Source: Bacteroidales bacterium (GTDB lineage Bacteria; Bacteroidota; Bacteroidia; Bacteroidales; UBA7960). Taken from it: a DNA stretch of 63,169 nucleotides. Of this stretch, positions 4,066-63,169 are shown in pieces; the stretch's first letter is position 1, and every line of letters starts with the position of its first letter. The position numbers and the translations under genes are program-made. Location: the NCBI GenBank assembly GCA_003552075.1, contig PUOJ01000123.1, positions 1 through 63,169 of the forward strand, in the 5' to 3' direction. Under the pieces are notes generated by a model. That model saw nothing but the letters and a program-made list of their open reading frames with translations. It did no database searches and was not told where the DNA came from.

Positions 4066-5688
4066 ATGAATAAATTGTTGCTTCTGGGTGATGAAGCGAT
4101 AGCCCAGGCAGGAATAGATGCAGGCATGTCCGGAGTATTTGCATACCCTGGGACGCCTTCCACTGAAATTACCCAATATGTACGGAGTTCCCCTGAGACC
4201 AAAAAGAAGGGCATCGTAGCCACCTGGGCTGCGAATGAGAAAACTGCCGCAGAGCAAGCCCTGGGCATGTCGTATGCCGGCAAACGGGCCATGACCTGCA
4301 TGAAGCACGTCGGACTCAACGTGGCTGCCGATGTCTTTATGAATGCAGCCATCACGGGTGCGAACGGCGGATTGCTTTTTGTCGTGGCCGATGACCCCTC
4401 CATGCACTCCTCCCAAAACGAACAGGACTCGCGGGTCTATGGCAAGTTTGCCATGATTCCCATCCTGGAGCCTTCCAACCAACAGGAGGCCTACGACATG
4501 GTGCACATTGGCTTCGACATCTCGGAAAAGCTGCAGGTGCCGGTACTGATGCGCATCACCACCCGGCTGGCCCACTCCCGGGCTGGCGTGGCCAGGAAGG
4601 ATACGCGCGAACAGAATCAGTTCAAGCTGCCGGAAGACCTGAAACAGTTTATCCTGCTACCCGCCATCGCCCGCAAGCGCTACCAGATGCTTCTCGACAA
4701 CCAGGAAGCGTTTCAGCAACTCGCGGATGAATCGCAGTACAACCAGTTCTATCCGGCTGAAGATACCACGCTGGGCATCATCGCCTGCGGACTGGCATAC
4801 AACTACCTGATGGAGAACTATCCGGACCGGAAGGTGCCGCACCCGGTGGTGAAGGTGACCCAATACCCGCTTCCCCAAAAGCATATCCGGGAGCTGTATG
4901 ACCAATGTGACGAGATCCTTGTAATTGAAGACGGCTACCCGGTGGTGGAAGAGATGCTCAAGGGTTTCATGGACAGAGGTAAGAAGATCAAAGGGCGGCT
5001 GGACGGTTCCCTGCCGCGCACAGGCGAGCTAAACCCGACCATCGTGGGCAAGGCGCTGGGCATCCCGGTTCCCGAAACCCTCCCGGTGCCCGACCTGCTG
5101 GCCAACAGGCCACCATCGCTGTGCAAAGGCTGTCCGCATATCGACAGCTTCCTCGGGCTGAATGAAGCCATTGAACAGTATGGCAAGGGCCGTGTGTTCT
5201 CAGACATCGGATGCTATACGCTCAGCGCATTGCCTCCCTATCACTCAATCAACACCTGCGTAGACATGGGCGCATCCATCACCATGGCCAAAGGTGCCGC
5301 AGATGCAGGCATGCGTCCTGCCGTTGCGGTGATCGGCGACAGCACCTTCACCCACTCAGGGATCACCGGACTGCTTGACGCAGTAAATGACAAAAGCAAC
5401 ATCACGGTGGTGATCCTCGACAATGCCACCACGGCCATGACCGGCGGACAACCATCATCGGCATTTGAGCGCCTTGAGGACATCTGCAAGGGAGTAGGTG
5501 TGGAAGAAGACCACATCCGGGTGATCAAACCGCTGAACAAACGCCATGAAGAAAATACCCAGGTGTTTAAAGAGGAGCTTGCCTATGACGGTGTCTCTGT
5601 CATCATCCCGCGCCGGGAATGCATCGTAACACTCAATAAACGGATGCGGCAAAAGTTCAAGGACAAAGAGAAGGCAGAGAAGAAGTAA
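4066..5688 (+). CDS. iorA: indolepyruvate:ferredoxin oxidoreductase, alpha subunit
   Basis: 540 aa. The N-terminus LLLGDEAIAQAGIDAGMSGVFAYPGTPSTEI, the TPP region GDSTFTHSGITGLLDAV and the motif LCKGCPH are all present. An iorB-like gene follows. Confidence 0.9.
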   Translation: MNKLLLLGDEAIAQAGIDAGMSGVFAYPGTPSTEITQYVRSSPETKKKGIVATWAANEKTAAEQALGMSYAGKRAMTCMKHVGLNVAADVFMNAAITGANGGLLFVVADDPSMHSSQNEQDSRVYGKFAMIPILEPSNQQEAYDMVHIGFDISEKLQVPVLMRITTRLAHSRAGVARKDTREQNQFKLPEDLKQFILLPAIARKRYQMLLDNQEAFQQLADESQYNQFYPAEDTTLGIIACGLAYNYLMENYPDRKVPHPVVKVTQYPLPQKHIRELYDQCDEILVIEDGYPVVEEMLKGFMDRGKKIKGRLDGSLPRTGELNPTIVGKALGIPVPETLPVPDLLANRPPSLCKGCPHIDSFLGLNEAIEQYGKGRVFSDIGCYTLSALPPYHSINTCVDMGASITMAKGAADAGMRPAVAVIGDSTFTHSGITGLLDAVNDKSNITVVILDNATTAMTGGQPSSAFERLEDICKGVGVEEDHIRVIKPLNKRHEENTQVFKEELAYDGVSVIIPRRECIVTLNKRMRQKFKDKEKAEKK

Positions 5689-5691
5689 GTA

Positions 5692-5827
5692 GGCTCTTGG
5701 CTATTAGCTATTGGCTGTTGGCTGTTGGCAAGAAAGCCAAAAGCTAAAAGCCAATAGCCAATAGCAAACAGCATTCCGCTTGAAAACACAAACACCAAAT
5801 AACCATGCAGTTAAAAACATACACACG
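5692..5827 (+). repeat. heptamer-built hairpin element, copy A (hairpin plus conserved leader tail)
   Basis: Tandem 7-mers GGCTCTT GGCTATT AGCTATT GGCTGTT GGCTGTT GGC, then loop AAGAAA (5730-5735), then the complementary 7-mer run. Arms 5700-5729 and 5736-5765 pair at 26 of 30 positions. The tail 5766-5827 is conserved with the copies at 24988-25055 and 57847-57909. Confidence 0.9.
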
Positions 5828-6409
5828 ATGAAAAACGACATCATATTAGCAGGAGTCGGCGGCCAGGGCATCCTGTCCATTGCAGCGATCATTGGCTATG
5901 CCGCCGTACAGTCAAACCTTTATCTCAAACAGGCAGAGGTGCACGGCATGAGCCAGCGTGGCGGCGACGTGCAGTCGCATCTGCGGTTGTCGTCGGATGA
6001 GATTGCCTCCGACCTCATCCCGGAAGGCAAGGCCGACATGATCATCTCGGTGGAGCCGATGGAGTCGCTCCGGTACCTCCCCTACCTTTATAAGGAGGGC
6101 TGGCTGATCACCAACACCCAGCCCTTTGTCAACATCCCCAACTATCCGGCCATCGAAGAGGTGATGGCCGAGATCCACAAACTGCCCAGGTACGTAGCAC
6201 TGGATGCGGAGAAAATGGCTGACGAGGCAGGCAGCAAGAAAGCCGCCAACGTAGTCATACTGGGGGCTGCCTCGCCATTTATAGATATCCCCGTCGAAAA
6301 ATTGGAGGAGGCGATCCGCTTCCTCTTTGGCAAGAAAGGAGAAGACCTCGTGGAAATCAACCTGAAGGCGCTGCGTGCCGGCCGCGAATTCGCCAAAGAA
6401 AATATGTAG
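5828..6409 (+). CDS. iorB: indolepyruvate:ferredoxin oxidoreductase, beta subunit
   Basis: MKNDIILAGVGGQGILS...HGMSQRGG is the pyruvate/2-ketoacid oxidoreductase gamma-type domain. I use the ATG at 5828; the track start at 5780 is a TTG inside the repeat tail. Confidence 0.85.
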   Translation: MKNDIILAGVGGQGILSIAAIIGYAAVQSNLYLKQAEVHGMSQRGGDVQSHLRLSSDEIASDLIPEGKADMIISVEPMESLRYLPYLYKEGWLITNTQPFVNIPNYPAIEEVMAEIHKLPRYVALDAEKMADEAGSKKAANVVILGAASPFIDIPVEKLEEAIRFLFGKKGEDLVEINLKALRAGREFAKENM

Positions 6410-24105: not shown

Positions 24106-24987
24106 TTATCCGTAGATTTCTCTTTTTGCAGCCTTCAGGGTGTTCATCAGCAAGGAGACAATGGTCATGGGCCCTACACCCCCTGGAACGGGCGTGATGT
24201 GGGAGGCTTTCTCCGAAACTTCGTCAAAGCGCACGTCGCCGATCAGCCTGAACCCCGACTTGGTCTTATCTGAAGGCACCCGGTGGATGCCCACATCGAT
24301 CACGACCGCACCTTCCTTCACCATGTCGGCAGTAACAAATTCGGGCCTGCCAATGGCCACGATCAGTATATCGGCCTTGGAGGTGATCTCCGCAAGGTTT
24401 TGTGTTTTGCTGTGACACACCGTCACCGTGGCATTGCCGGGCTCCTCATTACGGGCCATAAGCAAACTCATCGGCTTGCCTACGATATTGCTTCTGCCCA
24501 GGACTACGCAATTTTTTCCGCGGGTATCAATGCGGCTTCGCATCAGCAGCTCCATGATCCCATGGGGCGTAGCCGACACATACGAAGGCAGTCCAATGGT
24601 CATGCGGCCCACGTTTACCGGATGGAAGCCATCCACATCCTTCTCAGGGGCAATGTGCTGGATCACCTTTTGGTTGTCGATATGATCCGGCAGGGGCAAC
24701 TGCACAATGAGCCCATCGATTTCATGGTCATTGTTAATGAAGTCGACCGCCTCCAGCAATTCCTCCTCAGTGACATCTGTGGGGAAGCGATAGGTAGACG
24801 AATCAAACCCAACCTTCTTGCAGGCTTTCGCCTTGTTGTTGACATAGGTTTCACTGGCCGGATCCTCTCCCACCAGGATGGCTGCCAGGTGAGGCACTTT
24901 TTCGCCCTGGTCCTTCATCTTTTGTACTTCACCCGCAATCTCTTCCTTGATGGCTGCAGATATTTGTTTCCCGTCAATAAGCTTCAT
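24106..24987 (-). CDS. folD: bifunctional methylenetetrahydrofolate dehydrogenase/cyclohydrolase
   Basis: [17 protein letters not shown]..., ...LPLPDHID..., ...GRSNIVGKP..., ...[11 protein letters not shown]. Confidence 0.97.
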
Positions 24988-25129
24988 ATAAATGTGTTTG
25001 TGTTTTTCAACTAATTGGTTGTCTGGTGTTTGTATTTTTAAGCGGAATGCTGTTTGCTATTGGCTCGTGGCTATTAGCTTTTGGCTTTCTTGCCAATAGC
25101 CAATAGCTAATAGCTAATAGCCAAAAGCC
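24988..25129 (-). repeat. heptamer-built hairpin element, copy B (hairpin plus conserved leader tail)
   Basis: On the minus strand it starts 3 nt after the ffh stop. Arms 25056-25085 and 25092-25121(-25129) pair at 24 of 30 positions around a loop that reads AAGAAA on the minus strand. The tail 25055-24988 ends at the folD ATG. Confidence 0.9.
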
Positions 25130-25132
25130 GGC

Positions 25133-26476
25133 TTACCGCGGACGCATGCCTTGCATGTTTTGCATCATGCTGGACATTTTTCCCTTGCCGCCTTTCGACA
25201 TCATACGCATCATTTTGCGGGTATCCTCAAACTGCTTGACAAGCTTGTTCACCTCCGTGATATCCGTGCCTGCACCCCTGGCGATGCGCTTTCGGCGACT
25301 GCCGTTCAGAACAGCCGGATTTTCGCGTTCTTCCGGTGTCATGCTGTAAATAATAGCCTCAATGCCCTTGAACGCATCATCATCCAGGTCTACATCCTTT
25401 ATGGCTTTACCCATGCCCGGGATCATCCCCATCAGGTCCTTCACATTACCCATCTTTTTGATCTGCTGCAACTGCGAAAGGAAATCATTGAAGTTAAACT
25501 GGTTTTTGGCGATCTTTTTCTGGAGCTTCCTGGCTTCATCCTCATCATACTGCTCCTGGGCCTTTTCAACAAGTGACACGATGTCACCCATGCCCAGTAT
25601 CCTGTCTGCCATCCGGCGTGGATGAAACACATCGAGGGCATCTGGCTTCTCCCCGATACCCACGAACTTGATGGGCTTGTCTACCACAGACCGGATGGTC
25701 AATGCCGCACCGCCCCTTGTGTCGCCATCAAGCTTTGTAAGCACCACACCGTCGTAGTCCAGACGCTCATTAAAAGCCTTCGCAGTATTCACGGCATCCT
25801 GACCGGTCATGGCATCCACCACGAAAAGCGTTTCATGTGGATTTAAGGCCTCCTTCAGTGAAGAGATCTCATTCATCATCTCCTGGTCGATGGCCAAACG
25901 ACCGGCAGTATCCACCACAACCACCTGGTGACCCATGTTCTTGGCATGCTTCACGGCACGTTTGGCGATGCCCACGGGGTCTTTCTTGTCTTCTTCGGTA
26001 TACACCTCGACCGCTATCTGGCTGCCAAGCACCTTCAACTGATCGATCGCAGCAGGACGGTAAACGTCACCGGCAACCAGCAACACTTTCTTGCTCTTCT
26101 TGTCCTTCAGATAATTTGCCAGCTTGGCAGAAAAGGTCGTCTTACCACTACCTTGCAAACCGGCTACCAGGATGATGGAGGGATTGCCCTTGAGGTTTAT
26201 TTCCTCGTGTGTCGAGCCCATCAGCTCAGCAAGCTCCTCGTGCACCACTTTCACCATCAGCTGACCTGGCGAAACAGCGGTGAGCACATCGCGCCCAAGG
26301 GCCTTTTCCTTCACTTTCTCGGTGAAGGACTTGGCAATCTTGTAGTTTACATCCGCATCCACAAGCGCACGACGCACATCCTTCAGCGACTCAGCAATGT
26401 TTACTTCGGAGATATGGCCCTGTCCCTTGATGACCTTAAAGGCCTTGTCCAATCTATCACTTAAATTGTCAAACAT
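25133..26476 (-). CDS. ffh: signal recognition particle protein
   Basis: P-loop [21 protein letters not shown], and a Met-rich C-terminal M domain. Confidence 0.97.
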
Positions 26477-30974: not shown

Positions 30975-31098
30975 ATGAAACGGGCCATGCCAATATATTG
31001 ACACACACGAGAATGATTATTGTCGCGGGGACTTTTGGACTAAGTTGGCTTTTGGCTTTCTTGCCAATAGCTAATAGCCAAAAGCCAAAAGCCAAAAC
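30975..31098 (+). repeat. composite repeat, copy C (M module plus heptamer hairpin with inverted loop)
   Basis: The M module ATGAAACGGGCCATGCCAATATATTGACACACACGAGAATGATTAT (30975-31020) is homologous to 52076 and 52271. A spacer follows, then the hairpin GGCTTTTGGC-TTTCTT-GCCAATAGC... (31029-31098). Confidence 0.85.
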
Positions 31099-34616: not shown

Positions 34617-36551
34617 ATGGGTAAAATTATTGGTATTGACTTAGGTACGACCAACTCCTGCGTTTCGGTGATGGAAGGAAACGAACCCGTGGTGATCCCT
34701 AACAGTGAAGGGCGTCGCACCACTCCATCGATTGTAGCTTTCACCGAAAACGGAGAACGAAAGGTTGGTGACCCTGCCAAACGCCAGGCGATCATCAACC
34801 CGGAAAAAACAATTTACTCGATCAAGCGTCTGATGGGGATGCCCTATGATGCCGCTTCCAACGAGCGCGACAGGGTAACCTACAACATAGAAAAAGGCGA
34901 TAACAACACCACACGTGTCAAGATCGACGACAGAATGTATACACCACAGGAGATCTCTGCCATGGTGCTTCAGAAAATGAAGAAGACGGCGGAAGATCAT
35001 CTCGGACAGGAAGTCAGCGATGCGGTGATCACCGTGCCTGCCTATTTTAACGATTCGCAGCGCCAGGCCACAAAAGAGGCCGGCGAGGTTGCCGGACTGA
35101 ATGTGCGCCGCATCATCAATGAGCCAACAGCAGCCTCCCTCGCCTATGGCCTCGACAAAAAAGACAAAGACCTGCGCATCGCCGTCTTTGACCTTGGTGG
35201 TGGTACATTCGACATTTCCATCCTTGAGCTGGGCGATGGGGTCTTTGAGGTCAAGTCGACCAACGGTGATACGCACCTTGGCGGTGATGACTTCGACGAC
35301 GTCATCATCAACTGGCTGGCAGAGGAGTTTAAGAAGGATGAAGGCATCGACCTCCGTAAAGATCCGATGGCATTGCAAAGGCTGAAGGAAGGAGCTGAAA
35401 AAGCCAAGATTGAGCTTTCCAGTGCCACCTCCACGGAGATCAACCTGCCTTACATCATGCCGGTCGACGGCGTGCCGAAACACCTCGTGCGCACCCTCAC
35501 CCGCAGCAAATTTGAACAGCTTAGCGACCACCTGATCCAGGCAACCCTGGAGCCCTGCAAGGTGGCTCTGAAAGAGGCTGGGATGCAGCCATCAGAGATC
35601 GACGAGGTGATCCTGGTCGGTGGTTCCACACGTATTCCTGCAATCCAGGATGTAGTCGAAAAATATTTCGGCCGCAAGCCTTCCAAAGGCGTAAACCCGG
35701 ATGAAGTGGTGGCCATCGGTGCAGCAATCCAGGGTGGAGTCCTCACCGGCGAGGTGAAAGACGTGCTGCTGCTGGATGTCACCCCGCTGTCGCTCGGCAT
35801 TGAAACCCTTGGTGGCGTGATGACCAAACTGATCGAAGCCAACACGACCATCCCTACCAAGAAGCAGGAGACTTTCTCTACTGCCGCTGACAACCAGACT
35901 TCGGTTGAGATCCACGTGCTACAGGGTGAAAGACCGATGGCCAACGATAACCGTACGATCGGGCGTTTCCATCTGGATGGAATTCCTCCAGCTCCCCGTG
36001 GCATGCCTCAGATTGAGGTGACCTTTGACATCGATGCCAACGGCATCCTGAACGTGTCGGCCAAGGACAAGGCTTCCGGCAAGGAGCAAAAAATCCGCAT
36101 TGAAGCGTCTTCCGGCTTAAGTGAAAACGAGATCAAGAAGATGAAGGAAGAAGCCGAAGCACATGCAGAAAGTGACCAGAAGATGAAAGAAGAGATCGAC
36201 AAGCTGAATTCGGCAGATAGCCTGATCTTCCAGACTGAGAAGCAGCTGAAGGAATTTGGCGAAAAGCTGCCCGCAGAGAAGAAAGAGCCGATTGAAAAGG
36301 CACTTGCAGACCTGAAAGAAGCACACAAGAACAAAGACCTTGCAGCGATTGATTCGAATATGGAAAAACTCAACAACGCCTGGCAGGCTGCCAGCGCGGA
36401 GATGTACCAAAATGCGCAACAGGATGCAGGTCAGCAGGCCGGTGGCCAGCAACAGGCCGGACCGGATCAAACGCAAGAGCAGGACCCGTCATCAGGGAAA
36501 AAAGATGATGACGATGACGTAACCGATGTGGATTTTGAAGAAGTGAAATAA
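34617..36551 (+). CDS. dnaK: molecular chaperone DnaK
   Basis: [29 protein letters not shown], and a C-terminal ...VDFEEVK. Confidence 0.98.
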
Positions 36552-36812: not shown

Positions 36813-36908
36813 GCGGAGAGGGATTGCCTCGACTTTTGACTGGCAGCGCGAATTTATTCAGCGGAGAGGGGTTGCCTCGACTTTTGACTGGCAGCGCGAA
36901 TTTATTCT
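36813..36908. repeat. 48-bp tandem direct repeat, 2 copies
   Basis: GCGGAGAGGGATTGCCTCGACTTTTGACTGGCAGCGCGAATTTATTCA (36813-36860) is repeated at 36861-36908 with 2 mismatches. It lies in the dnaK/tpx convergent spacer. Confidence 0.9.
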
Positions 36909-36980: not shown

Positions 36981-37493
36981 CTAAACCAGTTCTTTGGCTG
37001 CTTCAAGCGCGCTGTCATAGTCGGGGTGCTCAGAAGTTTCGTTTACAACTTCCACATATTTGACCCTGTCCTCCTTGTCGATGACCACGATGGCACGCGC
37101 CAGAATGCCATATTCCTCAATCAGCAGGCCATACTTGATCCCATAATCCCTGTCCTTTTGATCGGAAACCATCACCAGGTTGTCGATGCCTTCTGCCGCA
37201 CAAAAACGCTTTAGGGCAAAAGGCAGGTCACAGGAAATGGCAATGATCTGTACATCCTCCAACCTGGAGGCCTCAAGGTTGAATCTGCGGGTCTGCTGGG
37301 CACAGAGATCTGTATCCACACTGGGCACCGAGGAGATGACACGTACTTTTCCCTGGTAATCACTCAGGTTAAATTGTTTCAGGTCAGGGGTAAATGCCAT
37401 GAAATTTTTGGCCGGATAATCTGCCTGGATGAGTTTTCCCATCAGCGTAACCGGCTTGCCGGCAAAGCTTACTAAGCCACTATTTCTTTTCAT
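36981..37493 (-). CDS. tpx: thiol peroxidase
   Basis: ...VISSVPSVDTDLCAQQTRRFN...IIAISCDLPFALKRFCAAEGI... is the Tpx pattern with peroxidatic and resolving Cys. The start is set at MKRNSGL (37493). Confidence 0.9.
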   Translation of the reverse strand: MKRNSGLVSFAGKPVTLMGKLIQADYPAKNFMAFTPDLKQFNLSDYQGKVRVISSVPSVDTDLCAQQTRRFNLEASRLEDVQIIAISCDLPFALKRFCAAEGIDNLVMVSDQKDRDYGIKYGLLIEEYGILARAIVVIDKEDRVKYVEVVNETSEHPDYDSALEAAKELV

Positions 37494-39413: not shown

Positions 39414-40295
39414 ATGACACGCTACTCCATCAACGACCTTGAAAAGCTCAGCGGCATCAAGGCCCATACCATCAGGATGTGGGAGAAGCGTTACCATATT
39501 ATTGAGCCCAAAAGAACGGATACCAACATCAGGTACTATCATGATTGTGACCTGAAAAAGCTGCTGAACATCAGCACCCTCAACCGGCATGGTTTTAAAA
39601 TATCCACCATTGCCGGCATGGATGAAGCTGAAATCCATGATAAAGTCATGGAAATAACCGGCACCAACGGGGATCATGAAACCACAATCAACAACCTGGT
39701 GGTTGCGATGATCGAGTTCGATGAAGATGCATTTGAGAAGATATTGAACACCGCCATCCTGCAGCTTGGATTCGAGCATTGCGTGACCCATATCCTCTAT
39801 CCTTTCCTGGAAAAAGTGGGGATTTTGTGGCTCATTGGTACGATAAACCCTGCCCAGGAACATTTTATCACTTACCTGATCAGGCAAAAGCTCATTATTG
39901 CCATCGACGGGCAGCCTAAACCATCCTCACCTGATGCACGCACTTTTCTGCTGTATCTGCCGGAAAATGAGCTCCACGAACTTGGATTGCTTTTTTACAG
40001 CTTCCTGTTGAAGAAAAACGGATTCAAGATCATCTATCTTGGCCAGTCCGTACCCTTCGACGACCTCCTCAAGGTGGTCAATGTACGCAACACCGACTAT
40101 CTCTTCACATATCTCATAGCCGCCATCAGCCAACGCGATCTCCCGGATTACCTCCAAAAGCTCGGAGAAACCTTCCCGGACAAGAAAATTTTTGTCACAG
40201 GCAACCAGGCCCACACCAACGAGGTCCCCTTTCCCAAAAATGTCATCCCGGTACAAGACGCTGAGCAGTTTAAAAATATGCTGCAGGACCTGTAA
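39414..40295 (+). CDS. MerR-family regulator with cobalamin-binding domain (CarH/LitR-like)
   Basis: N-terminal MerR HTH YSINDLEKLSGIKAHTIRMWEKRY, a middle helical domain (ILWLIGTINPAQEHF), and a C-terminal B12-binding Rossmann motif ELHELG (ExHxxG) ...TYL...VTG. Confidence 0.8.
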   Translation: MTRYSINDLEKLSGIKAHTIRMWEKRYHIIEPKRTDTNIRYYHDCDLKKLLNISTLNRHGFKISTIAGMDEAEIHDKVMEITGTNGDHETTINNLVVAMIEFDEDAFEKILNTAILQLGFEHCVTHILYPFLEKVGILWLIGTINPAQEHFITYLIRQKLIIAIDGQPKPSSPDARTFLLYLPENELHELGLLFYSFLLKKNGFKIIYLGQSVPFDDLLKVVNVRNTDYLFTYLIAAISQRDLPDYLQKLGETFPDKKIFVTGNQAHTNEVPFPKNVIPVQDAEQFKNMLQDL

Positions 40296-40413
40296 AGGCC
40301 AGGTGCGGACAGCCCAAGTGCTGCCCCAGCTGGTTTCATACACCCCATGAAGGGCTGCCAGGCCCATCAGGCAATTTTTGTTCCTTACCCGATCGATCAT
40401 CGGCGCAAGTTTC

Positions 40414-40497
40414 TTCTTACTTCTTACTTCCTGCTTCCTACTTCTTACTTCCTACTTCCTACTTCCTACTTCCTACTTCCTACTTCTTACTTCCTTC
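40414..40497. repeat. heptanucleotide tandem array (TTCYTAC) x12
   Basis: Twelve contiguous 7-mers: TTCTTAC x2, TTCCTGC, TTCCTAC, TTCTTAC, TTCCTAC x5, TTCTTAC, TTCCTTC. There is no complementary arm nearby. Confidence 0.95.
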
Positions 40498-40718
40498 TTG
40501 CCTCCGTGGGAATTTTCTCCGCCTTCGGGGAAAGTCTTTTTTTGTTTATTTAAAAAAACCAACTTGACAAACAATGATTCTTATGTTTTAACAATAATTA
40601 AACACACAACATATTGATTTTTGCATTTTATTGCTTAATTTTATGTCGCAAATGAGGATTTAAACCCAACGAAACGCGCTTTTTGCTCAACCTATTTTGT
40701 TAAAAAAATTTAAAGCGC

Positions 40719-46046: not shown

Positions 46047-47868
46047 CGTCGCCCCGCAATTGCCTAAAGCGGTTGCGTGCGGTTATGGTATGCAGGCTGC
46101 CCGGGTAGTCAATCATGATCTGCTGATAGAGGGCCATCGCCTTGTCGTCTCTTTCAAAAAGGTATTGTTGAAGTTCAGCCCGCTGAAACAGGGCTTCATC
46201 TGCGAGCAGGCCCATGGGATATTGTTCCGTAATGAGTGTCAGCAGGCTGTCTGCAGCTTCATAGTCACCTCTTTCACGCATGATGTCAGCGCGGGCAAAA
46301 AGCACATCATCCTGGATCTGGTGGTTTGGAAATGCTTCCTGGATGGAATCCAGGGTGTGCAAAGCCCTGTCGTAATGATTCATAAAGATGTGTTGTTCTG
46401 CCCGGGCATACATAAGCAGGGGCTGTGGATCTCCGTTCACGCCGAGGTTATCCTGTATCCTCAGCGACAGCTTCATCGCATCATTGGCAATCAACCTGGA
46501 GGTCCCGGCCTTCAGGATGTCAAGCTGGGCTTTTGCCCAGTCAAATTCGCCAATGAAATAGGTCAGCCGGGCATTTTTGTATTTGGCTTCATGGGCAAGG
46601 GGGTCGTCGCGAAACATACGGTCGACCTGCGAATATAAAAGCGTCGCATCCCACACCTGGCCGGTATGCAGCAGGATGTCGGCCAGCTCGATACGGCATT
46701 CCGCTTTCACCCGGTTGGAGATCCGGGGAAGGTCGAGTGTAGCCTCCAGCAATTCGATCGCTTCTGCCGTGTTCTCCAGATAAAACGCCTGCAAGTTAGC
46801 CAGGTTGCGGACAAGGCTCACGGTGCGGGAATTGATGCCCAGGTCATTAATGGCTTCCTTGTATTCCTGCTCAATCTCAAGCAGGTCATCCGGATCATAG
46901 GTGTAATCATCGGTCACAGCCAGAAAGCGGACATTCAGATAGCCAACCAGCGCCTCCAGGTAAAAGGGTGCTTCTTCTCCCTGGTCAAGCAGGTATTGAT
47001 AGGCTTCGGCAGCCACCTCGAAATGCGCGTTGTTCTTGCTCAACTCCGCAACCTCCAGCACCGGCCCCCCTTCCTGCTGCAGGCGCCTGTCAAGGGCCCT
47101 GGCCTGCCGGAAGGCAAGCCGGAAGTCCTGCTGCTGAATGGAAAGCCACAGCAGCATCTCCGAGTAATGCGCGTGCTCAGGGTCACGTTGCGTGCGGGCG
47201 AGAAGCTCTGCCCTGAGTGCATCATTCCGTTCAAAACCCGGATCATGGGCAATGGCGTCCTGTATCCTCCCCCTGACCCGGTCCATGTCATCCGGACGCG
47301 CAGTCATATAATCAAGGTACTCCTGCATCATGGCACGGTAGTCGCCTTTCCTCTCATGAAGCTCAGCGATACGAAGATGCAAGGGGTGGCTGTCGCCCAA
47401 AAGCCGGCGACCCTCCTGGAAAGTGTCCATGGCCCTGCCAAGGTATCCCCGTGCTTCAAAAGCCATGGCCAGTCCAATCACCGCATCAGGATCTGCTTTA
47501 AGGTCATCAATGAGGCCATCAAGCTGCCGGCGTGCCCTGCGCGACTGATCGGCACGGTCATAAGCCCAGCCCAGGTCTACCTGGTAACGGATGTCATCCG
47601 GATGCGCTTCGATCTGCGCTTCAACAACCTGACGCGCTGTCCTGAACTCATCCAGGGCAAACAAGCTTTCAAGGTAGTTGTTATAGATGACCGGCGTGGG
47701 GTTTTCTTCAAAAAGCTCCTCATAAAGTGCCAGGGCCTGCTCGTATTGTCCATCTCTAAAATACTGGTTTGCAAGCCTTTCGTCGGTGGCATCCTCGGCA
47801 AACAAAAGCGAAGCGGCAATCAGAAGCGCACAAAAAACGGCCATGTTTCTGAAAAGATACTGCATCAT
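46036..47868 (-). CDS. tetratricopeptide-repeat protein, secreted
   Basis: The start is set at MMQYLFRNMAVFCALLIAASLLFAED (signal peptide). Long TPR array. Confidence 0.75.
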   Translation of the reverse strand: MMQYLFRNMAVFCALLIAASLLFAEDATDERLANQYFRDGQYEQALALYEELFEENPTPVIYNNYLESLFALDEFRTARQVVEAQIEAHPDDIRYQVDLGWAYDRADQSRRARRQLDGLIDDLKADPDAVIGLAMAFEARGYLGRAMDTFQEGRRLLGDSHPLHLRIAELHERKGDYRAMMQEYLDYMTARPDDMDRVRGRIQDAIAHDPGFERNDALRAELLARTQRDPEHAHYSEMLLWLSIQQQDFRLAFRQARALDRRLQQEGGPVLEVAELSKNNAHFEVAAEAYQYLLDQGEEAPFYLEALVGYLNVRFLAVTDDYTYDPDDLLEIEQEYKEAINDLGINSRTVSLVRNLANLQAFYLENTAEAIELLEATLDLPRISNRVKAECRIELADILLHTGQVWDATLLYSQVDRMFRDDPLAHEAKYKNARLTYFIGEFDWAKAQLDILKAGTSRLIANDAMKLSLRIQDNLGVNGDPQPLLMYARAEQHIFMNHYDRALHTLDSIQEAFPNHQIQDDVLFARADIMRERGDYEAADSLLTLITEQYPMGLLADEALFQRAELQQYLFERDDKAMALYQQIMIDYPGSLHTITARNRFRQLRGDVVN

Positions 47869-51935: not shown

Positions 51936-52075
51936 GCGTCAAATTGTCGAAAAGTCGAAAAGTCCGGGCAAAGGTAATGGAAATCGGACTTGCCATTGCA
52001 TCAGGCATCGGTGCAAACCAAATATTTTCAAATAATGCGTATATTTGAGAAATACCTGTGGCAAAAAAAGAAACC

Positions 52076-52361
52076 ATGAAACGAGCCATGCCAATATATT
52101 GACATACACGGGGATGATTATCGTCACGGCGGCGTTCAGACTGAGTAGGCTTTTGGCTATTAGCCATTGGCTATTGGCAAGAAAGCCAACAGCTAAAAGC
52201 CAATAGCCAATAGCAGTCTTGTTGAAAACATAAACGTTAGAAAACCAACAATTTAAAAAAATATAAACACATGAAACGAGCCATGCCAATCTATTGACAC
52301 ACACGAGAATGATTATGTCATGGCGAGTTCCATGTGCCCGAAATATAAAAATTATAAACAC
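52076..52361 (+). repeat. composite repeat, copy D (M module - hairpin - tail - M module)
   Basis: M module at 52076-52128, hairpin arms at 52148-52178 and 52185-52214 around AAGAAA, tail at 52215-52270, and a second M module at 52271-52318. The 16-nt direct repeat TATAAACACATGAAAC occurs at 52262 and 52353. Confidence 0.9.
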
Positions 52362-52868
52362 ATGAAACTGGAACTAATTAGGGGCGACATTGCCAACCAA
52401 CCAGATATGGATGCCATTGTAAATGCAGCAAATGCCCAGCTGCGCACGGGTGGCGGGGTAGCTGGTGCCATCCACCGGGCTGCAGGCCCGGGCCTGGAAG
52501 AAGAATGCCGGCCTTTGGCTCCGATTCAGCCTGGACAGGCGGTGATTACAGGCGCGCATCAGCTGCCCAATAAATATGTGATCCACTGCCTGGGGCCAGT
52601 ATACGGTCGCGACAAGCCCAGCGACAAGCTTTTGGCTGCCTGTTATAAAAATGCCCTTAAGCTGGCTGAAGAACACCGGCTCAGGTCCATTGCTTTTCCT
52701 GCGATCTCCACCGGTGTCTTTGGCTACCCCCTGGATGATGCGGCGGAAGTGGCCGTCAGCACGATTCAGGAAATGACCGGCACGCTTGAACACCTTGAAA
52801 CAATTCGTATGGTGCTTTTCAGCGAGCGCGACCTTCAGGCATTTCATCGGCAAGTTGCTGGCAAATAA
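52362..52868 (+). CDS. macro domain protein (O-acetyl-ADP-ribose deacetylase-like)
   Basis: GDIANQPDMDAIVNAANAQLRTGGGVAGAIH...AFPAISTGVFGYP. ATG at 52362. Confidence 0.85.
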   Translation: MKLELIRGDIANQPDMDAIVNAANAQLRTGGGVAGAIHRAAGPGLEEECRPLAPIQPGQAVITGAHQLPNKYVIHCLGPVYGRDKPSDKLLAACYKNALKLAEEHRLRSIAFPAISTGVFGYPLDDAAEVAVSTIQEMTGTLEHLETIRMVLFSERDLQAFHRQVAGK

Positions 52869-57756: not shown

Positions 57757-57823
57757 TCGCGCTTGACATGGCAAGTTTTGTGGTCAGCAAGCACAAAAAA
57801 CACAGCACACGGAAACAACCAAA

Positions 57824-57909
57824 GCCAAAAGCTAAAAGCCAATAGCAAACAGCATTCTGCCTGAAAACAGAAACGCCAGACAGCCAATAACTTGAAAAAA
57901 CATTAACAA
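57824..57909 (+). repeat. heptamer hairpin element, copy E (right arm plus conserved leader tail only)
   Basis: GCCAAAAGCTAAAAGCCAATAGC (57824-57846), then a tail that is near-identical to copies A and B and ends at the ATG at 57910. There is no complementary left arm. Confidence 0.85.
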
Positions 57910-62992: not shown

Positions 62993-63036
62993 GGCTTCTG
63001 GCTTTTGGCTTTTAGCTGTTGGCTGTTGGCAAGAAA
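62993..63036 (+). repeat. heptamer hairpin element, copy F (left arm plus loop only)
   Basis: It begins 2 nt after the fni stop: GGCTTCT GGCTTTT GGCTTTT AGCTGTT GGCTGTT GGC AAGAAA. Other 7-mer words (TTAAGGG, GTTTGAG...) follow instead of the complementary arm. Confidence 0.8.
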
Positions 63037-63169
63037 GTTAAGGGTTAATGAGTTAAGGGGTTACTGGTTTGAGGTTTGAAGTTTTTGCATACCAGCTTGA
63101 AGCCATCGCATTCCCGGACTTTTTGACCTTTAGACATTTTGACTTTTAGACCTTTTTTACGCATGAAGA

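Follow-up and report, generated by a model that had tools for sequence, protein, structure and literature searches.

In a 63,169-nt contig of an uncultured soda-lake member of the Bacteroidota (the whole stretch being referred to hereafter as the window), the entire spacer between ffh (25133-26476, minus strand) and folD (24106-24987, minus strand), positions 24988-25129, is occupied by one copy of a repeated element, so that the coding strand reads as the ffh stop codon, 3 nt, a 74-nt hairpin, a 68-nt A/C-rich tail, and the folD ATG. The element is genuine: a modular repeat, specific to its lineage, whose leader is anchored at the start codon. In the reading that we favor, with a probability of about 0.5, this modular intergenic repeat would be transcribed within operons or 5′ untranslated regions (5′ UTRs) and its tail would act as a Shine-Dalgarno-independent leader. 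The relatives used for comparison are represented by loci from soda-lake sediment assemblies, which we take to be part of the Kulunda soda-lake sediment set of metagenome-assembled genomes (MAGs); the window itself matches the MAG GCA_003555045.1 (PWHT01). L-numbers denote contig loci of these relatives or of metagenomes, L142 being a stretch of the window's own genome on its left side.

A profile hidden Markov model of the tails (nhmmer) gives exactly four matches in the window, with E-values of 1.5e-16 to 6e-12 and the next one at 0.78, and these lie at iorB, folD, the enoyl-CoA hydratase gene (ech), and a macro-domain gene (Table 1). A 16-mer match to the tail at 46691-46706 lies inside a coding region and is due to chance, and the dnaK leader (upstream of 34617; AAAAAAACATACACA-ATG), which is tail-like by eye, is not a member of the family in the profile search. 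The tails consist of 50% A, 23% C, and 10% G, the G content being 25% in the window and 17% at positions −60 to −1 of its 44 other genes, and their best-conserved part across loci is the 5′ 38 nt (AAACAGCATTCYGCYTGAAAACACAAACACCAGAYAAC). Among metagenome contigs, a stricter pattern matched two loci, L119 and L120, both of which are true copies beside genes unrelated to those of the window. In L120, the full hairpin directly follows the stop codon of a methylmalonyl-CoA mutase gene and leads through the tail to the ATG (L120 3602) of a small lipoprotein-like open reading frame (ORF), and in L119, a right arm plus tail lies between an FtsW/RodA gene and a NAD kinase gene (start at L119 1979). 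Orthologous copies are present in L127 (folD 98% identical), with the same hairpin and tail, and in L123 (iorB 87% identical), with a right arm and a variant tail that is the same variant as the one at the macro locus. This amounts to eight copies at seven loci, six of them clearly independent, and to a family density of four tails in 72 kb of this genome. No ninth tail is found in the 9.3 kb left of the window (L142) or in ~200 kb of relatives’ loci; a scan of genome contigs with a loose pattern (17 specified bases) gave only chance matches among the matches listed, and in viral contigs the tail pattern had no match, while all six matches to the loop pattern are chance ones within coding DNA.

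All copies are in sense orientation to the downstream ORF, for which random orientation over the six clearly independent loci would give p ≈ 0.016. Since the folD copy is on the strand opposite to that of the other three window copies, the polarity tracks the gene and not the DNA strand, by which a replication-strand bias (as in IS200/IS605-type single-strand transposition) is rejected as the sole cause. The 3′ ends fall 0–1 nt before the ATG in every copy except that of folD, which ends 5–6 nt before it, the final 5–6 nt of the folD tail (ATTTAT) being additional relative to the other copies. The 5′ junctions vary (stop+3, stop+6, stop+65, within the upstream ORF in L123, or after a second repeat module, B), and the 3′ junction is always the ATG. 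The ATGs at 5828, 24987, and 57910 are real starts, as judged by full-length homologues of iorB, folD, and ech that show 98–100% query coverage at near-identical lengths. The genes behind the tails, namely iorB, folD, ech, a NAD kinase gene, and a lipoprotein gene, are functionally unrelated.

A first-pass annotation of the window had listed the four tail sequences with hairpin-to-ATG distances of 62, 68, 63, and 56 nt and had described them as G-poor and co-oriented with unrelated downstream genes, and on all of these points, coordinates included, the analysis bears it out, the co-orientation now extending to 8 of 8 copies. Its statement that each tail ends at the ATG of the next gene holds for iorB, folD, and ech and fails for the macro locus, where ATG 52271 opens a 7-codon mini-ORF (MKRAMPIY*) of repeat B copy 3 and the macro gene starts at 52362. 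Likewise, the hairpin which it placed before all four tails is present at iorB, folD, and macro, whereas ech retains the right arm only.

Table 1. Positions of the repeat modules and associated signals in the window.
Feature	Position	Strand	Context
iorB hairpin, heptad array	5692-5765	+	between iorA (stop codon 5686-5688) and iorB
iorB tail, A/C-rich, 62 nt	5766-5827	+	abuts iorB ATG 5828; E 3e-14
folD hairpin, heptad array	25129-25056	−	begins 3 nt past ffh stop codon (25135-25133)
folD tail, A/C-rich, 68 nt	25055-24988	−	abuts folD ATG 24987
Macro-locus hairpin, heptad array	52148-52214	+	within long 5′ region of macro-domain gene
Macro-locus variant tail (AGTCTTGTTGAAAAC... type), 56 nt	52215-52270	+	abuts ATG 52271
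ech right-arm heptads only	57821-57846	+	upstream of enoyl-CoA hydratase gene; left arm absent
ech tail, A/C-rich, 63 nt	57847-57909	+	abuts ech ATG 57910; E 3.6e-16
Repeat B copy 1 + short heptad hairpin, loop reversed	30975-31044 + 31045-31097	+	no tail
Repeat B copy 2	52076-52145	+	directly upstream of macro hairpin, 29 nt downstream of −7 box
Repeat B copy 3	52271-52340	+	between tail and macro start 52362; then second “ATAAACAC ATGAAAC” module
TATATTTG, Bacteroidetes-type −7 box	52040-52047	+	conserved in relatives
Left-arm heptads + loop GCAAGAAAG, then other heptad types	62993-63045	+	no right arm, no tail

The arms of the hairpin are heptad arrays (period 7) of 25–37 nt with ~45% G+C, separated by a loop of 6–11 nt. 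At iorB, the left arm (GGCTRTT)n and the right arm (GCCAAWA)n, which are 84% complementary, enclose the loop GCAAGAAAGCC, and at folD, the same loop is flanked by (GGCTATT)n and (GCCAATA)n arrays. The predicted fold of the full-hairpin copies with their flanks has an energy of −43 to −55 kcal/mol (−54.7 at iorB), with the tail mostly single-stranded. The hairpin is complete at four of the seven loci, and the right arm stands alone at the other three (ech, L119, and L123), the copies of which cannot form it because the left arm is absent. A conserved mini-stem in the tail (CAAC...GTTG, GC.....GC), which appears in some folds, was rejected on the grounds that it is not kept in L120 or in the macro copy, as was a left end of the element bearing the stop codon (AAGTAAGTA in iorB and L120), since the element-free L122 already has AAGTAA as native iorA sequence. 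The repeat can overwrite the 3′ end of an upstream ORF, as seen from L123, in which right-arm heptads (5115-5139) replace the last five iorA codons (KAKAKS vs KNKSEKK) and supply the stop (GCTAA).

The comparison with relatives shows what stands at the same junctions in the absence of the element. In L124 (iorB 85%), the iorA–iorB spacer is only 9 nt long (TAAcagatatagATG) and carries no element, and in L122 (93%), it holds a different array, (GACATTTY)n, followed by ...TATAAACAC-ATG. The ffh–folD spacers of L128 (93%) and L132 (87%) are unrelated to that of the window and measure 96 and 202 nt. At the ech locus, the first ~65 nt past the upstream stop codon are conserved in three genomes and the remainder up to the ATG differs: L140 has a GAC-array, a B-like segment, a hairpin of GTTTGAA/CTCAAAC heptads, and an A/C-rich leader ending in CCAGATAACAAAAAACAAACAG-ATG, and L141 has a TTTTGAC array with an AT-rich leader. 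The rpmB spacer contains B1 plus hairpin in the window, a unit that is absent from the L127 ortholog, and both the macro and rpmB loci are without the element in the relative MAG GCA_003557765.1. An inserted element takes the place of the native spacer instead of interrupting it, and no target-site duplication is visible. From the differing spacers at these five compared loci, it follows that the family is gained, lost, and exchanged between genomes module by module, the combinations encountered being B plus hairpin, hairpin plus tail, right arm plus tail, and another hairpin family plus a tail-like leader. The heptad modules, too, seem to recombine. A hybrid array at 62993-63090, made of left-arm heptads (GGCTTTT/GGCTGTT) and the loop GCAAGAAAG followed by GTTAAGG and GGTTTGA heptads, is conserved in L140, and L141 carries a different mixture.

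Divergence was measured for the folD copy. Relative to L127, 5 of 131 aligned positions of the element differ, and there are in addition a 1-nt indel and a left arm that in L127 is shorter than in the window by 14 nt (two heptads); the tail has 3 substitutions in 68 nt. At 4-fold degenerate sites, the window and L127 differ at 33 of 136 positions in folD and 48 of 191 in ffh (24–25%), and binomial tests against these sites give p of 1e-10 for the element and 1e-5 for the tail. Other spacers are 72–94% identical between the window and L127. This conservation is compatible with purifying selection and may also result from homogenization (gene conversion) among copies.

With respect to transcription, TAnnTTTG, the Bacteroidetes −7 box, is found within 150 nt upstream of 17 of the 44 other genes and of none of the 4 tailed starts, and there is no TTTG in any tail, which led to the rejection of a Bacteroidetes sigma-A-type promoter (TAnnTTTG with a −33 TTTG). 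At iorB and folD, the two loci that were scanned, the element contains no sigma-70-like promoter, and neither strand of 24800-25300 or 5550-5950 shows a terminator-like site; the sequence after the hairpin, AAACAGCATTCC, has no T run, so that an intrinsic terminator at iorB and folD was rejected as well. Given the lack of promoter and terminator signals, and given that iorA and iorB encode the subunits of one enzyme and are 9 nt apart in L124, the element is most likely transcribed through.

Bacteroidia ribosomes do not use Shine-Dalgarno pairing. Translation initiation in Flavobacterium johnsoniae benefits from A at −3, −6, −12, and −13, from a weakly structured start region, and from a scarcity of AUGs nearby (PMC6847099). 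The tails have A at −12 in 7 of 7 cases and at −13 in 6 of 7, and the 44 other window genes bear the same signature, with 45–52% A and 5–14% G at −11 to −14. There is a single internal ATG across all eight tails, and each tail has stop codons in at least two reading frames (in all three frames in four copies). The mean predicted probability of being unpaired, P(unpaired), over −25 to +15 is 0.64–0.67 for three tailed genes and 0.49 ± 0.11 for 45 others, which places them at ranks 41–42 of 45. When the element is inverted in silico, P(unpaired) over −20 to +3 falls from 0.67–0.80 to 0.10–0.31.

Taken together, these features suggest a model in which the element consists of an optional ~70-nt B segment, a hairpin with arms of 7-nt units, and a unique A/C-rich tail of 56–68 nt, and in which it would fill the spacer of co-directional genes or a 5′ UTR and be transcribed as part of the mRNA. 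The tail would then supply an unstructured leader, poor in G and in AUGs, in which a run of A covers about −11 to −16, as preferred by the Shine-Dalgarno-blind ribosomes of the Bacteroidia, and would at the same time hold a very stable hairpin ~60 nt away from the start codon, thus insulating the start. We propose that the polarity is kept because the opposite orientation would lay the hairpin over the start codon, and reverse-oriented copies would accordingly be selected against. The hairpin itself might shield the upstream cistron at its 3′ end, serve as an RNase III target or processing site, or have no role. It has to be kept in mind that co-transcription, leader function, selection behind the polarity, and any role of the hairpin are what we infer from sequence.

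The first-pass annotation had gone on to propose a portable hairpin-plus-tail cassette, and this proposal fared unevenly. Portability is upheld by the occurrence of the element at six unrelated gene junctions, with the orthologous spacers being empty or filled by other repeats, and so are the leader-like nature of the tail, in view of A at −12/−13 and a predicted start region among the most open in the window, and the lack of a canonical promoter in it (0 of 4 tailed starts vs 17 of 44 other genes with TAnnTTTG). Hairpin and tail are, however, not an obligatory pair, the left arm being missing at three of the seven loci and the hairpins at 31045-31097 and 62993-63045 having no tail, nor are they, in the comparison with relatives, strictly gained or lost as one unit, since modules occur in several combinations.

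A number of points weigh against the favored reading. The sample is small, as the statements on polarity and ATG adjacency are drawn from 6–7 independent loci and eight copies. Of the other positions known to matter in F. johnsoniae, A−3 is present in one of seven tails and A−6 in four of seven, so that neither is consistent. The accessibility values come from in-silico folds of 180-nt fragments; the macro-locus tail serves a 7-codon mini-ORF and not the macro gene; and the folD element, whose identity equals or barely exceeds that of the best native spacers (94%), is not singled out by its conservation. Finally, no insertion was seen that lies further upstream and spares the native leader, and this points tentatively to some mechanistic anchoring at the start codon.

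Such an anchor is the essence of the first rival explanation, according to which the element is neutral or selfish and owes its polarity and ATG adjacency to spread by recombination or template switching on start-codon microhomology (ATGAA/ATGAAAC). We consider this unlikely, and yet it is a live rival, because in addition to the missing upstream insertions ATGAA is present at all six starts and ATGAAAC recurs at module boundaries. Specifically, ATGAA is found at 6 of 6 independent tail-preceded starts compared with 10 of the 44 remaining genes, a post hoc statistic (nominal p = 1.4e-4) that covers six loci and may be a coincidence; ATGAA is native in orthologues lacking the element, and at the macro locus each of the three module boundaries (52076, 52271, and 52362) carries ATGAAAC. 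The complete replacement of the native spacer, with no target-site duplication, and the free recombination of the modules fit this explanation too. On the other hand, the analysis turned up no recombinase or transposase (RAYT genes were not looked for), and neither the match in A(−12/−13) and low structure nor the roughly 6-fold greater conservation of the folD copy relative to 4-fold sites is explained by it. Copying on microhomology is also compatible with, and not exclusive of, a leader function of the tail. A variant that combines the two, which we regard as quite improbable, holds that leader cassettes (heptad arrays, B, and A/C tails) are copied between gene junctions via ATGAA(AC), overwriting the sequence from stop to ATG, and would thus represent, in this Shine-Dalgarno-blind lineage, a mobile translation-initiation region and not a mobile promoter.

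A further possibility, likewise of low probability, is that the tail and/or the heptad arrays are binding platforms for a trans-acting RNA-binding or ribosomal protein and that the genes behind them form a post-transcriptional regulon. In its favor, cross-locus conservation is highest in the 5′-most 38 nt of the tail (AAACAGCATTCYGCYTGAAAACACAAACACCAGAYAAC), and conservation exceeds that of 4-fold sites; unrelated short-repeat arrays, e.g. GACNTTTT, also abut ATGs in the sense orientation in this lineage, and there is precedent in the TAACTGA heptamers of Beggiatoaceae (PMC4679880) and the heptamers of Nostoc (bioRxiv 10.1101/2022.06.06.494920). The downstream genes are, however, functionally unrelated, close relatives express them without the element, a candidate binding protein did not come to light, and likeness among copies can also reflect a recent common origin. 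It is highly improbable that the element is a terminator-plus-promoter cassette, with the hairpin terminating the upstream transcript and a promoter for the downstream gene residing in tail or hairpin: the element does directly follow stop codons and has replaced a folD spacer of 96–202 nt that may have held the promoter of folD, but the T run, the TTTG and TAnnTTTG boxes, and (at iorB and folD, the two loci scanned) the terminator-like site and sigma-70-like hexamers that such a cassette calls for are absent as described above, and at iorB the element separates two subunit genes of one enzyme.

Assignment to known classes of elements was attempted as well. A search of the whole window against Rfam 15 at gathering thresholds returned no match, and permissive scans gave generic hairpins only (miRNA precursors, sok, and Flavo-1 at 15 bits vs a threshold of 42). 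A miniature inverted-repeat transposable element was rejected because the inverted repeat is internal, with the tail outside it, the unit ends are unrelated and there are no terminal inverted repeats, and because no target-site duplication is present, as a comparison with the empty L124 site (TAAcagatatagATG) shows 9 nt to be gone and nothing duplicated. An integron attC site or gene cassette was rejected in view of flanks made of housekeeping genes (ffh, folD, and iorAB) in conserved synteny, a search for an integrase not having been made. For REP/BIME/REPIN sequences, defined as imperfect G+C-rich palindromes of about 20–40 nt that have a conserved 5′ tetranucleotide, are dispersed in hundreds of copies, and go with a cognate RAYT transposase, the picture is mixed, the element being a palindromic extragenic repeat with arms that are 25–37-nt heptad arrays of ~45% G+C, at four tails in 72 kb. 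Heptamer direct repeats at the start codon, in the strict sense, were rejected because the period-7 arrays are 56–68 nt from the ATG and the ATG-proximal tail has no such array.

Heptamer repeats before start codons (PMC4679880; for Nostoc, bioRxiv 10.1101/2022.06.06.494920) are nevertheless the closest described phenomenon. Direct heptamer repeats that read forward and stop ~1 nt short of start codons occur in Beggiatoaceae, cyanobacteria, and five Bacteroidetes, and the corresponding spacers of relatives are shorter and repeat-free (PMC4679880). The present element resembles them in having intergenic arrays of 7-nt period, in being oriented in sense toward a start codon and itself ending a few nt from it, in that the genes which follow are unrelated to one another and lack a Shine-Dalgarno sequence, and in that relatives show indels in 7-nt steps and repeat-free, shorter spacers. 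It differs from them in its heptamer, which is GCCAATA/TATTGGC, and in that the heptads form a hairpin away from the ATG, which is instead abutted by a unique, non-repetitive tail of 56–68 nt. What is new relative to known kinds is precisely this: heptads arranged as a hairpin, with a unique ~60-nt leader, and not an array, touching the ATG.

Arrays of the GACNTTTT type, which stand in sense directly before starts, are found in the window at the EamA transporter gene (51936-51968, minus strand; array 51946-51964) and before the ORF starting at 63163 (63117-63162, plus strand; array 63117-63156), and in relatives at L122 9940-10000 (before iorB), L140 12545-12600, and L141 15155-15190. The two window arrays fit the published heptamer pattern better than does the hairpin–tail element, and the EamA array, as it follows a TACCTTTG −7 box, would form the whole 5′ UTR.

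The pneumococcal BOX (A-Bn-C), enterobacterial ERIC/IRU and REP/BIME, and Neisseria Correia repeats (PMC3049150, PMC2649163, PMC2229807, and PMC3116915), which are transcribed as parts of operons, are similar in being short, non-coding, and intergenic, in forming stable RNA hairpins, and in being modular, with variable numbers of units that are gained or lost between close relatives, and their effects on neighboring genes depend on orientation. Unlike them, the element has no terminal inverted repeats of the whole unit and no target duplication, nor an end promoter of the kind that Correia makes, and these families have not been described with a start-codon-anchored leader of strict polarity. 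With regard to the tail, a different likeness can be drawn.

The omega leader of tobacco mosaic virus and the CA-repeat enhancers used in E. coli, of ~60–70 nt, are G-poor, A/C-rich, and unstructured and allow initiation without Shine-Dalgarno pairing. These leaders are viral or synthetic and have no homology to the tail, which is likened to them by its composition and its predicted lack of structure.

The choice and tuning of start sites in the Bacteroidia are only partly understood beyond the role of A at −3, −6, −12, and −13 and of low structure, and one leader of ~60 nt placed on unrelated genes is in effect a natural comparative experiment on what leader is sufficient, for which the element-free relatives provide the control. 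The element would also add a case in which RNA-level selection or start-codon-anchored copying fixes the polarity of a bacterial interspersed repeat, and it ties in with the unexplained heptamer arrays near starts in Beggiatoaceae, cyanobacteria, and Bacteroidetes. Were start-anchored copying true, the region just upstream of starts would be a hot spot of recombination by which translation initiation is rewired one gene at a time; were the tail merely tolerated, the family would be an ordinary lineage-specific repeat.

Repeat B (~70 nt) has three copies in the window (Table 1) and a B-like one at L140 7132-7181. It opens with the 7-codon mini-ORF ATGAAACGRGCCATGCCAATMTATTGA (MKRAMPIY*), in which the three copies have two differences, both synonymous, and it lies immediately upstream of heptad hairpins at two loci, the B-like copy in L140 preceding a different heptad hairpin. 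Possible identities of repeat B are a leader peptide, an RNA motif, and a repeat module. At the macro locus of L140 and L141, TATATTTG is followed after ~16 nt by the ATG (MTKEEAMK...), and in the window ~310 nt of repeats (B2, hairpin, tail, and B3) have been inserted after this −7 box. The macro-domain protein lacks the first 6–8 codons relative to L140/L141 (MTKEEAMKTNLEL... vs MKLEL...) and starts at an ancestral internal Met, its start codon now being ~310 nt past TATATTTG, behind two copies of the mini-ORF and the hairpin.

Other short repeats were encountered in passing. A (CTTCCTA) array of 12.4 units with a 21-nt super-period occupies 40413-40499, after a gene ending at 40295; with 285 nt between it and the next ATG, it does not abut a start. 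In the spacer that separates the dnaK-like gene (34617-36551) from an ORF at 36981-37493, a 48-nt unit that contains CGACTTTTGAC is repeated twice in tandem (36813-36907; 97% identical). In L142, a G-rich spacer between co-directional genes (1203-1376) is composed of GGGGTTA/GGTTGAA-like units and represents another short-repeat family.

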